Assembly: GCA_016839365.1 (NCBI GenBank)
Contig: JAEOUH010000067.1
Span: 1 to 53,935, forward strand
DNA: 53,935 nt
Direction of reading: 5' to 3'
Source of the DNA: Candidatus Hermodarchaeota archaeon
GTDB taxonomy: Archaea; Asgardarchaeota; Hermodarchaeia; Hermodarchaeales; Hermodarchaeaceae
Shown here: piece after piece, positions 35,527-38,397 of the stretch
Layout: every line of letters starts with the position of its first letter
Numbering within the stretch: position 1 is the stretch's first letter
Translations under genes and position numbers: made by a program
Notes under the pieces: model-generated
What the model was told of the DNA's origin: nothing
Databases searched by the model: none
The model's input: only the letters and a program-made list of their open reading frames with translations

Positions 35527-35928
35527 TCAAGCCTCTTTCTGCCGCTTGGACTTATGCAGAGCGGATACAGCTTGTTTCCGGGTCTGCCGTTTAATCTCCT
35601 CGATTTGCTCAATGGCTGGGAGAATTGTGTCCACTAGCTCGCTTTTCGCTTGGATACCCTCATGGGTTAGAAACGCCACGGCTTCACTTCGACTCTTGAA
35701 AATCTCTAGTGCAATTAACGCATCGACGATTCTCAAATCTGAGTCCCACAGTCGGGTCATCACAATATTGTCTCGACGTTTCGCTTCAGGAAGATCGCCT
35801 TTCATGAAGAGCTGTTTTAACTCTTCCATTACTTCCTGCTTCAATGCAGGTGTCATATCCAGGTCATCCGTTGTGACTGAGGCTGCAGGAGTTCTCCGCT
35901 TCGTTTTGGTCTTGGACGAGGAGGTCAT
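35527..35928 (-). CDS. Ribbon-helix-helix (CopG-like) putative regulator
   Basis: NIVMTRL...IVDALI...FKSRSEAV...GI pattern. Confidence 0.65.
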   Translation of the reverse strand: MTSSSKTKTKRRTPAASVTTDDLDMTPALKQEVMEELKQLFMKGDLPEAKRRDNIVMTRLWDSDLRIVDALIALEIFKSRSEAVAFLTHEGIQAKSELVDTILPAIEQIEEIKRQTRKQAVSALHKSKRQKEA

Positions 35929-36097
35929 AGGCTTTCCCTATTCTATTGGTGAGTGAAACTTAGCATTTTAGCGTTACGCCTCACCGTCTTTATGCGTTAC
36001 ATTATTGCACTTTGGTAGGTTGTTAGTGATTGGGGCAAGCTTAAATACGGGTAGAACTTAACACTGTTAAGCTTAGGGATTTCAGAGGCGCATTGGA

Positions 36098-36367
36098 ATG
36101 TCTGAAGAATCAAAGAAAACAACACACAGCAAGGTCGAAATCCATCACACGATTGATGCACGGGGTCTGTATTGTCCAATACCCGTGTACAAGACCAGGC
36201 AGGCAGTGCTAGAAGCTAAACCCGATGAAGTTGTCGAAGTGCTAGCTGACGATCCTGCCTCAGAAGAGGACATATCACGATGGGCAAAACGCACTGGAAA
36301 CACGATTTTAAAAATCGAACATTGTGAAGATTATCTTCGGTTCCTGGTTCAAAAGACTGAGAAGTGA
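36098..36367 (+). CDS. tusA: TusA/SirA sulfur carrier
   Basis: IDARGLYCPIP motif; LADDP..EEDI..W. Confidence 0.9.
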   Translation: MSEESKKTTHSKVEIHHTIDARGLYCPIPVYKTRQAVLEAKPDEVVEVLADDPASEEDISRWAKRTGNTILKIEHCEDYLRFLVQKTEK

Positions 36368-36373
36368 GTAAAA

Positions 36374-36736
36374 ATGCCAAAAAAAATCTTATATATAGTA
36401 ACAAGCGGAACAGACGAACCCCACCGGCTTTATGCTCCATTTGTATTAGCCACTACCGCTAGAGCAATGGATATTGATGCCACAATCTACTTTCTTATTA
36501 ACGGTGTTATGGTCATGAAACAAGGGGAAGCTGAAAAAATCCAGTTAGGTAGTTTTCCTCCACTTAAGGAGGTTATCGACCAGGCTATCAAAGCTGGAGT
36601 TAAACTGATGGCCTGTGACCAAAGCACACAGATGTTAGGTTTAGAACGTGGCGGTTACTTGAAAGAATGTGGAGTCGTTGGGTCAGCAACCCTAAACGAT
36701 CTTGCTTTAGAAGCTGATGCAATCCTAAGCTTCTAG
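36374..36736 (+). CDS. DsrE family sulfur-transfer protein
   Basis: KILYIVTSG, IYFLINGV, GVKLMACDQS with conserved Cys. Confidence 0.85.
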   Translation: MPKKILYIVTSGTDEPHRLYAPFVLATTARAMDIDATIYFLINGVMVMKQGEAEKIQLGSFPPLKEVIDQAIKAGVKLMACDQSTQMLGLERGGYLKECGVVGSATLNDLALEADAILSF

Positions 36737-36770
36737 CACCGCATGGATATGAAATAGGGAGTGATTTGCC

Positions 36771-37982
36771 ATGGTGGAACAGGTCAATTTCAATCATAGT
36801 GCAGGAGTACCGATTGATGAACGAGTCCTTGCAGCAATGCAACCCTATTTCCGAACTTATTATGGTAATCCCGGCTCCGTGCATACAGCGGGACAACAAT
36901 CAGCAAAGGCTGTTGAGAATGCCCGAATCCAAGTCGCCCGACTCATCGGTGCGGATGCAAAAGATAAAATCATCTTCACAAGTGGAGCCACGGAATCAAA
37001 CAATTTGGCTTTGCAGGGCTTTGCCTATCGTAACCGTAGGAAAGGGAACCATATCATCCTCTCACAGGTTGAACACCTCAGCATCATCAATACAGTGAAA
37101 TTCCTCAACAAACAGGGATTCGAATCGACGCAAGTGCCTGTGGATGAATTTGGGTTAGTGAACACAAAAGCACTCGAAGAGGCAATCACTGACCAGACCA
37201 TCCTCATATCAATTCAGCATGCTAATAATGAAGTAGGTACAGTCCAGCCTTTAGCAGAGATTGGAAAAATCGCCAAAAGCGCTGAAATTCCATTACACGT
37301 GGATGCTGTGGCTAGCGCCGGTCAAATCCCCATCAACGTTTCTGACCATGGAATTTCGTTATTAACCCTATCATCAAATGACCTTTATGGTCCAAAAGGA
37401 GTGGGTGCCCTTTACTTGGAGAAAGGGATTGCTGTTCAAACAATTATCCTTGGTGGAGGTCAAGAGTATGGTATCCGGTCCGGATCAGAAAATGTTCCTG
37501 GAATCGTTGGAATGGGGCTAGCCGCAGAGATAGCTATGAGACAGCAACCGGAATTTGCCAGTTATCTTACAGGACTACGTGATGACTTGATACAAGGAAT
37601 ACTCAAAAAAGTCGATGAAGCATATTTGAATGGTCATCCAACCAAACGCTTACCGAACAATGCTAATATCCGGTTTAGCTATATTGAGGGTGAAGCAATC
37701 ACCTTGCATTTAAGTTTCCAAGGTTTTTTGGTTGCAACTAGCTCTGCCTGTACTTCAAAAACACTAGCCCCCTCACATTGCTTAATGAGCATGGGCATTT
37801 CAGAAGCTGAAGCCCACGGGGCACTCCAACTCACATTAGGACGTGAAAACACTCAAGCACAAATCGATCGATTTGTTGAGGTGCTTCCACCAATTGTCGA
37901 AAAGCTGCGGGCAATGTCACCGCTTTCAAAAGATGTACCATACGAACTGTTTGAAAACGAAGAGCATGAACATCATCATTAA
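36771..37982 (+). CDS. iscS: IscS/NifS-like protein with the PLP lysine replaced by Asp
   Basis: YGNPGSVH, FTSGATESNN, ANNEVGT, HVDAV, SSNDLYGPKG (normally SxHKxxGPKG), SSACTS. Confidence 0.88.
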   Translation: MVEQVNFNHSAGVPIDERVLAAMQPYFRTYYGNPGSVHTAGQQSAKAVENARIQVARLIGADAKDKIIFTSGATESNNLALQGFAYRNRRKGNHIILSQVEHLSIINTVKFLNKQGFESTQVPVDEFGLVNTKALEEAITDQTILISIQHANNEVGTVQPLAEIGKIAKSAEIPLHVDAVASAGQIPINVSDHGISLLTLSSNDLYGPKGVGALYLEKGIAVQTIILGGGQEYGIRSGSENVPGIVGMGLAAEIAMRQQPEFASYLTGLRDDLIQGILKKVDEAYLNGHPTKRLPNNANIRFSYIEGEAITLHLSFQGFLVATSSACTSKTLAPSHCLMSMGISEAEAHGALQLTLGRENTQAQIDRFVEVLPPIVEKLRAMSPLSKDVPYELFENEEHEHHH

Positions 37983-38007
37983 TCACTAGAAAAGGAGATG
38001 AAACAAC

Positions 38008-38397
38008 GTGTACAGCGAAAAAGTTGTAGAACATTTCACTAATCCCCGAAACATGGGAGAAATGGAAGATGCCGATGCAGTAGGAAAAGTTGGAAATCCA
38101 ACTTGTGGAGATCTCATCTGGATCTACATCAAAGTCAAAGATGACATCATAACCGATGTCAAATTCAAGACCTTTGGGTGTGCAGCAGCCATCGCCACAT
38201 CGAGTATGGTGACTGAACTTACGAAAGGGAAGACTCTCAAGGAGGCCTACCAGATTACTCGTAATGATGTCGCGGATAATCTCCAAGGTCTCCCTCCAAT
38301 CAAAATGCACTGTTCGAACCTAGCTGCAGATGGTCTACACAAAGCCATAGAAGATTATCTTAGGAAGACAGGACGAACAATCGAGGACCTCAAATAG
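38008..38397 (+). CDS. iscU: Fe-S scaffold IscU/NifU-N
   Basis: YSEKVVEHFTNPRN, CGD, FKTFGCAAAIA, LPPIKMHCSNLA. Confidence 0.93.
   Translation: MYSEKVVEHFTNPRNMGEMEDADAVGKVGNPTCGDLIWIYIKVKDDIITDVKFKTFGCAAAIATSSMVTELTKGKTLKEAYQITRNDVADNLQGLPPIKMHCSNLAADGLHKAIEDYLRKTGRTIEDLK

Follow-up and report, generated by a model that had tools for sequence, protein, structure and literature searches.

The stretch of DNA analysed here (hereafter the window) comprises the 53,935 nucleotides of contig JAEOUH010000067.1 from a Candidatus Hermodarchaeota archaeon (assembly GCA_016839365.1; 2.2 Mb in 93 contigs, 84% complete). On its forward strand, positions 36098 to 38397 carry four open reading frames (ORFs) in the order tusA-dsrE-iscS*-iscU, separated by intergenic gaps of 6, 34 and 25 nt and flanked by a divergent gene on the upstream side and a convergent response-regulator gene on the downstream side (Table 1). 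The asterisk marks a relative of the cysteine desulfurase IscS that has lost the lysine of the pyridoxal phosphate (PLP) site. The locus is read here, with moderate confidence, as an iron-sulfur (Fe-S) assembly operon of the minimal ISC type, in which a PLP-dead IscS* partners the scaffold IscU and the small carriers TusA and DsrE take over the supply of sulfur.

Table 1. Genes of the operon and features on its upstream side, with positions in the window
Feature	Position	Strand	Evidence and remarks
133-aa ORF, no Pfam family	35527..35928	-	divergent from tusA
TTAAATA, TATA-box-like	36041..36047	+	50 nt upstream of tusA start; sequence inspection
tusA, 89 aa	36098..36367	+	PF01206, 2e-24; Cys26 in LYCPIP, codon 36173-36175
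dsrE, 120 aa, DsrE3A-like	36374..36736	+	PF02635, 9e-18; Cys81 in MACDQS, codon 36614-36616
iscS*, 403 aa	36771..37982	+	PF00266, 5.5e-70; Asp204 = GAC 37380-37382; Cys327 codon 37749-37751
iscU, 129 aa	38008..38397	+	PF01592 (NifU_N), 1.2e-48

The PF00266 match (aminotransferase class V) spans the full length of IscS* and identifies its family and fold. At residue 204, where class I cysteine desulfurases (EC 2.8.1.7) have the PLP lysine, the protein carries an aspartate within the motif SSNDLYGPKG; the same alignment column holds lysine in 100% of 109 lysine-bearing relatives and is preceded by histidine in 99%. The N-terminal motif reads NFNHSAGVP, as against LDxxATTP in the lysine-bearing relatives. 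A first-pass annotation of the sequence had pointed out both of these changes, together with the retention of the loop cysteine, and the alignments bear it out on each: the mobile-loop Cys327 (SSACTS) is invariant in an 88-sequence alignment that includes lysine-less members, and H102 and D178 are likewise retained.

Two further losses were not part of that annotation, namely the Gln of the HxDAVQ motif (Q181 to A) and the substrate Arg (R353 to Q). They emerged when the alignment columns of 107 lysine-bearing relatives were compared with those of the lysine-less sequences; a column was counted if at least 85% of the lysine-bearing group shared its residue and the lysine-less group had lost it. 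The columns specifically lost in this way are few (T12, Q181, H203, K204 and R353): T12 is kept in 95% of lysine-bearing relatives, and Q181, R353 and H203 (N in IscS*) in 97-100% each, as against 0% in the Asp clade for all four. Q181, H203 and K204 are taken to be PLP contacts and R353 to be the arginine that binds the carboxylate of the substrate, as in the E. coli enzyme, where the PLP and substrate contacts would presumably be numbered His205, Gln183 and Arg354. IscS* also scores below the NCBIfam cut-offs for NifS (TIGR03402, 462 bits against 531) and IscS (TIGR02006, 376 bits against 643). To judge from its residues, IscS* has lost desulfurase chemistry and cannot generate a persulfide.

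The best match of IscS* in the PDB is Archaeoglobus fulgidus IscS2 (4EB5, 4EB7 and 4HVK; E 1.4e-135), which shares the SSNDxYGPKG motif, followed by 4R5F, an engineered D199K variant of the same protein. IscS2 has no desulfurase activity, binds pyridoxamine phosphate (PMP) and donates a Cys ligand to the [2Fe-2S] cluster of IscU, so that the precedent invoked in the first-pass annotation is both correct and the closest solved structure (PMC7585200; PMC8918507). IscS* sits with other D-type sequences in a clade of 99% support, and Asp occupies the position in all of the best 120 matches to the D-type protein (at the level of 90% clusters), which come, by name, from Asgard groups, Bathyarchaeota, Thermoplasmatota, Euryarchaeota and one Desulfosporosinus metagenome-assembled genome (MAG). 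There is probably nothing special about the aspartate as such: other members of this well-supported clade have Ala, Ser or Pro at position 204, and a new role for Asp204, which was considered, is unlikely on the same ground.

Relative to its closest homologue, iscS* has a dN/dS of 0.06, within a span of 0.05-0.14 for the four genes, all of which are under purifying selection. This rules out a decaying pseudogene, and the low ratio indicates that iscS* encodes a maintained protein that gave up PLP chemistry, not a broken gene. In another Asgard family (f4; genome G003, L179:1402-2652, + strand), an IscS-like protein keeps the lysine (SSQK) and has lost the HxDAVQ Gln, the substrate Arg and the ATTP motif; the gene resembles an intermediate state, with iscU adjoining and no tusA.

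The three partner proteins retain the residues expected of them. TusA, which is single-copy in its genome, matches PF01206 with 85.7 bits (cut-off 28.6), and its CPxP cysteine, Cys26 in the CPIP motif reported by the first-pass annotation, is invariant in 47/47 linked homologues. In the PDB it is closest to 1JDQ and E. coli TusA (3LVJ_C), and it scores 47.3 bits against the NCBIfam TusA equivalog NF001423 (cut-off 78), with an equal score for YedF. DsrE matches PF02635 with 64.9 bits and keeps Cys81 in 31/31 aligned homologues. Among solved structures, DsrE most resembles 3MC3 (S. solfataricus SSO1125; E 1.7e-14), a protein that has the Cys at the aligned position and is treated as DsrE3A in PMC11094781; the operon DsrE thus appears to be of a DsrE3A-like type, a subgroup assigned from this one PDB relative and not from a family tree. 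IscU passes NCBIfam TIGR03419 (206.8 bits against a cut-off of 187.9) and has all of its ligands, comprising Cys33, Asp35 (CGD), Cys58 and Cys102 preceded by His101; the three cysteines, as already annotated, are present and are conserved in 96-100 of 101 homologues. It is the sole NifU_N-type scaffold found in its own genome, where it is single-copy.

IscU proteins elsewhere among the sampled loci show two kinds of enlargement. In the Asgard family f12 (genome G023, L173:187-1812, + strand; likewise G012 and G034), IscU is encoded apart from iscS* in an ORF of 518-541 aa; an intein that contains a LAGLIDADG homing endonuclease (PF14528, 4.5e-16; the match to PF14890, at 1.3e-05, is below its cut-off) interrupts its NifU_N domain after approximately profile position 34, and a ThiF-family gene adjoins. 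At many Asgard loci (L074-L079, L163, L164 and L188-L200), the IscU beside iscS* is 265-450 aa long, compared with ~130 aa, and has an extra C-terminal part.

The first-pass annotation had suggested looking for a recurrent association of lysine-less IscS genes with tusA and dsrE, and such an association is found across Asgard families, metagenomes and a bacterial clade. Loci were drawn from species-representative genomes, 300 Asgard genomes and 80 metagenome contigs, the latter selected purely for their similarity to an alignment in which lysine-bearing and lysine-less sequences were mixed, and genome stretches were taken by coordinates. Neighbours were scored with profile HMMs built iteratively from matches, and unique sequences were counted; a locus was called linked when TusA and/or DsrE was encoded on the same strand within 2.5 kb, and informative when its flanks were adequate. 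Linkage is seen at 47/52 informative lysine-less loci and at 0/69 lysine-bearing loci, counts that overstate the evidence because the lysine-less genes form only two clades, for which a single origin is allowed by the approximately unbiased (AU) test. In full, the lysine-less genes divide into 47 linked, 5 unlinked with adequate flanks and 8 unlinked on contigs that end too early; for the 109 lysine-bearing genes the corresponding numbers are 0, 69 and 40.

The linkage extends over at least 10 family-level Asgard groups, metagenome contigs and a Caldithrix MAG, and the neighbourhood is kept down to ~50% IscS* identity. Its Asgard variants are tusA-iscS*-iscU, tusA-dsrE-iscS*-iscU and tusA-tusA-dsrE-iscS*-iscU, whereas in Asgard families with a lysine-bearing IscS, IscU adjoins and no carrier does. 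Both arrangements occur within one genome, G146, where dsrE-tusA accompany the D-type pair and no carriers accompany the K-type IscS-IscU pair. This second, lysine-bearing pair is found in genomes of family f9 (L193, G146:C2:25000-34500), and a short, divergent gene of SufB/D-like type (G146:C2:27457-28113; 317 aa, PF01458 2e-20) is located ~2.3 kb away.

No recognisable Fe-S scaffold system other than the operon was found in its archaeal family. SufB/D was found neither in the genome itself nor in 18/19 family genomes (72-91% complete), the sole match (1/19) being at a contig end of a fragmented MAG, and the A-type carrier (PF01521) was found in 0/19. A Mrp/ApbC-type protein is encoded in 17/19 family genomes (~1e-97), and the genome's single IscU and single TusA are both those of the operon. 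Among Asgard genomes that are at least 85% complete, SufB/D is present in 95/151, with 0/7 in f1 and 0/3 in f12; it was also not found in f27 (0/2) or in many genomes of f4, f6, f9 and f21. Because no other Fe-S scaffold system was found in the family, the role of the operon is probably housekeeping.

Whether sulfur reaches such an operon without cysteine is a separate matter. The genome encodes, on another contig, a SufS-family protein with the PLP lysine (FSGHKGP) and the active-site Cys (HHCC), and 16/19 family genomes have such a lysine-bearing desulfurase of the SufS type. In the sister family f12, among whose genomes two are closed, the gene order of the operon is tusA-dsrE-iscS*-orf121-sufS, with sufS downstream of iscS*; for example, in the closed genome G023 (L162:4875-8570, - strand), an iscS* with Asp is followed by orf121 and by a lysine-bearing sufS (TIGR01979, 1e-128), in an operon without IscU. 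A lenient Pfam scan of the f12 orf121 product (121 aa) gave no credible family. A rhodanese that might load the carriers was searched for in the window's own genome and none was found. The first-pass annotation had proposed a cysteine-independent route, and this part of its interpretation is not supported: since a lysine-bearing SufS-type desulfurase is retained, sulfur could still derive from cysteine. The carriers could be loaded either by cysteine via SufS or by inorganic sulfane sulfur, and the data choose neither.

Upstream of the operon, the TTAAATA element is a candidate archaeal promoter. Homologues of the 133-aa ORF occupy the same divergent position in all Hermod-type loci examined and nowhere else among the sampled loci; the ORF may encode a local regulator. 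A Pfam scan, including at a lenient threshold, gave no credible family for it. By eye only, its C-terminal half resembles a ribbon-helix-helix regulator.

In the mechanism proposed for the operon, sulfane sulfur would be loaded onto Cys81 of DsrE and/or Cys26 of TusA, and the carriers would pass it to the mobile-loop Cys327 of IscS*. IscS* would be bound to IscU as in 4EB5, in an (IscS*-IscU)2 complex, and would transfer the sulfur to a nascent [2Fe-2S] cluster on Cys33, Cys58 and Cys102 of IscU while helping to ligate it. The ultimate donor may be cysteine, by way of the genome's separate SufS-type desulfurase, or the polysulfide or thiosulfate of the sulfidic habitat. The TusA-IscS* contact, the ultimate donor and the direction in which the sulfur travels are inferences. 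TusA can receive sulfur from DsrE3-type proteins, which in turn can be charged by polysulfide (PMC11094781). E. coli TusA docks with its Cys ~4 Å from the loop Cys of an IscS whose TusA-binding residues are W45, E49 and D52 (PMC2854127), by analogy with which the geometry of a TusA-IscS* contact is plausible. If sulfur passes between these proteins at all, its direction must be from the carriers to IscS*/IscU, because IscS* cannot make a persulfide.

A number of observations weigh against this mechanism, some of them phylogenetic. The lysine state changes only 3 times on a 149-sequence tree, which leaves 2 phylogenetically independent contrasts (sign test p 0.5). Two supported clades hold the linked lysine-less genes, namely the Asp clade and a mixed NQ/NS/SQ/DQ/QT clade that includes the Caldithrix MAG. 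The AU test does not reject their union in one clade (p-AU 0.69), and the tree constrained in this way is 17.7 log-likelihood units better. It is therefore possible that the lysine was lost once, in an ancient gene already linked to the carriers, and that the arrangement was inherited thereafter. The raw count of 47 versus 0 was accordingly discarded as a statistic, the contrasts numbering two and the AU test allowing one origin, and the impressive co-occurrence counts shrink to one or two evolutionary events.

Other points on the same side concern the genes and the chemistry. Five lysine-less loci with good flanks have no tusA or dsrE (in f15, in f17, a second copy in f3, and L134), and some of the linked loci have no DsrE; in the f15 and f17 genomes, TusA is encoded elsewhere. 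Co-transcription of tusA, dsrE, iscS* and iscU is judged from their spacing, and the genome is only 84% complete. A relay is not needed to avoid cysteine, because a SufS-type desulfurase is present, and free sulfide alone sustains related minimal systems (PMC12192291).

Several features nevertheless support functional coupling over mere inheritance. In the second lysine-less clade, the gene order is reversed (iscS*-iscU-dsrE-tusA) and the DsrE belongs to a different subfamily, being a DsrE2-like protein of 160 aa (PF13686, 1e-44 to 1e-49) as compared with the 120-aa PF02635 type of the Asp clade. Together with the within-genome contrasts and the persistence of the neighbourhood at ~50% identity, these differences suggest that the association has been maintained.

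Within the carrier-fed mechanism, a tentative possibility is that cysteine is the ultimate source, with a SufS-type desulfurase making the persulfide and TusA and DsrE shuttling it to IscS*-IscU in the manner of SufE or SufU. This is a sub-case of the main explanation and contradicts the claim of cysteine independence. It draws on the SufS with intact FSGHKGP and HHCC motifs in the genome and its 16/19 counterparts, on the f12 operon and on the failure to find, in the same genome, a rhodanese that would load the carriers from thiosulfate. The adjacency of sufS is, however, observed in one family only, and the SufS-family gene of the window's own genome lies on contig C24, convergent with a gene for a MoeB/ThiF/UbaA-type E1 (L001:716-2745; SAMP-activating E1 NF047750 1e-58, MoeB 4e-65). 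This position points to thiocarboxylate chemistry (tRNA, molybdenum cofactor (Moco)) and not to Fe-S supply, and the SufS and E1 pair likely represents a thiocarboxylate sulfur route apart from the Fe-S operon. The converse and stronger claim, that the operon is the sole Fe-S machine of Hermodarchaeota-type Asgard archaea and is fed by carrier-bound sulfane sulfur from environmental polysulfide or thiosulfate and not by cysteine, seems unlikely. If true, it would make the operon a distinct, carrier-fed mode of Fe-S biogenesis, common to the large clade of lysine-less IscS proteins in anaerobic archaea and to some bacteria.

Somewhat less probable again is that IscS*-IscU uses free sulfide directly, while TusA and DsrE buffer or detoxify reactive sulfane sulfur or regulate the scaffold. 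E. coli TusA competes with IscU on IscS. Sulfide has been hypothesised as the source for A. fulgidus IscS (PMC8918507), the SMS system uses Na2S (PMC12192291), some lysine-less loci are without tusA and dsrE, and E. coli TusA is reported to modulate IscS and Fe-S assembly. Direct use of sulfide would, however, leave unexplained why carriers stand beside lysine-less and never beside lysine-bearing IscS, why two DsrE subfamilies were recruited and why the loop Cys is invariant.

A reversed flow of sulfur, or a thiolation module in which IscS*-IscU together with TusA and a TusD-like DsrE serves tRNA 2-thiouridine or Moco synthesis and not Fe-S supply, is improbable. The cast of an IscS homologue, TusA and a DsrE/TusD-family protein does match the E. 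coli relay (PMC2854127), and any TusA-dependent thiolation must use the operon TusA because it is the only one in the genome; yet IscS* is unable to make a persulfide, neither the operon nor its flanks contain a TusE, MnmA or Moco gene, and the constant fourth partner is IscU and not a thiolation enzyme. Very improbable is a purely historical linkage, in which a single ancestral event brought the genes together and they have remained neighbours although no function couples them directly: the AU test and the mere 2 contrasts would accommodate it, but the adjacency holds to ~50% identity across several archaeal phyla and bacteria and has outlasted both the complete inversion of the gene order and the exchange of one DsrE subfamily for another, and all four genes are under purifying selection.

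Among known systems, the operon is close to the A. fulgidus IscS2-IscU pair, with which it shares the Asp in place of the PLP lysine in SSNDxYGPKG, the retained loop Cys and the adjacent IscU; given this close relationship to a published protein, the dead-enzyme part is already known. PMP binding and Cys ligation of the cluster are properties of the Archaeoglobus protein and would apply to IscS* by homology. The two differ in that descriptions of the A. fulgidus pair name no TusA or DsrE (PMC7585200; PMC8918507), whereas the present pair forms part of a four-gene operon of an Asgard archaeon in which SufBC was not found. A literature search on the A. fulgidus locus tags returned unrelated matches only.

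The MIS system is reportedly the minimal ISC system of Garcia et al. 2022. Like MIS (MisS-MisU; PMC13066941, PMC12192291), the operon has adjacent genes for IscS-like and IscU-like proteins (here 25 nt apart) in an anaerobic archaeon, without chaperones or an A-type carrier (PF01521 0/19 here). Recent reviews present MIS as a bare two-component system (PMC12192291; PMC13066941), and its MisS is described as an active cysteine desulfurase (PMC12192291), whereas the operon combines a dead IscS* with two conserved carriers.

The E. coli IscS-TusA-TusBCD relay has in common with the operon an IscS, a TusA with the CPxP Cys and a DsrE/TusD-type carrier, and TusA docks at the loop Cys of IscS (PMC2854127). 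There, however, an active IscS is the donor and TusA the acceptor, whereas IscS* makes no persulfide, and the operon TusA scores below the TusA equivalog cut-off. The DsrE3-TusA cascades (sHdr/rDsr; Metallosphaera DsrE3A/TusA) resemble the operon in encoding a DsrE3A-like protein beside TusA, but their sink is a sulfur-oxidising enzyme complex, whereas TusA and DsrE here adjoin genes for Fe-S assembly, and the window contains neither sHdr nor Dsr genes. A homotrimeric DsrE that carries persulfide or thiosulfonate to TusA is a feature of characterised DsrE3 proteins and would extend to the operon DsrE by analogy. The SUF pathway (SufS-SufE/SufU to SufBCD) likewise places a small carrier between sulfur source and scaffold, and SMS (SmsCB) assembles Fe-S clusters from sulfide without a dedicated desulfurase (PMC12192291), but the scaffold and carrier families of both are unrelated to those of the operon.

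The dead IscS and the MIS concept are thus known, and what is new is the linkage to TusA and DsrE with its phylogenetic caveat, the two DsrE subfamilies, the SufS evidence and the failure to find SufBC in the family. A literature search that did not cover the text of Garcia et al. 2022 found no paper joining TusA or DsrE to a lysine-less IscS, to MisS or to Asgard archaea. The carrier-fed mechanism would be housekeeping and not accessory in a lineage close to the eukaryote ancestor, because the operon is the only Fe-S scaffold system found in the family. How the A. fulgidus IscS-IscU pair obtains its sulfur has been called open, with sulfide offered as a guess (PMC8918507), and carriers encoded beside exactly these dead enzymes are concrete candidates for the missing sulfur step that can be tested by ordinary biochemistry.

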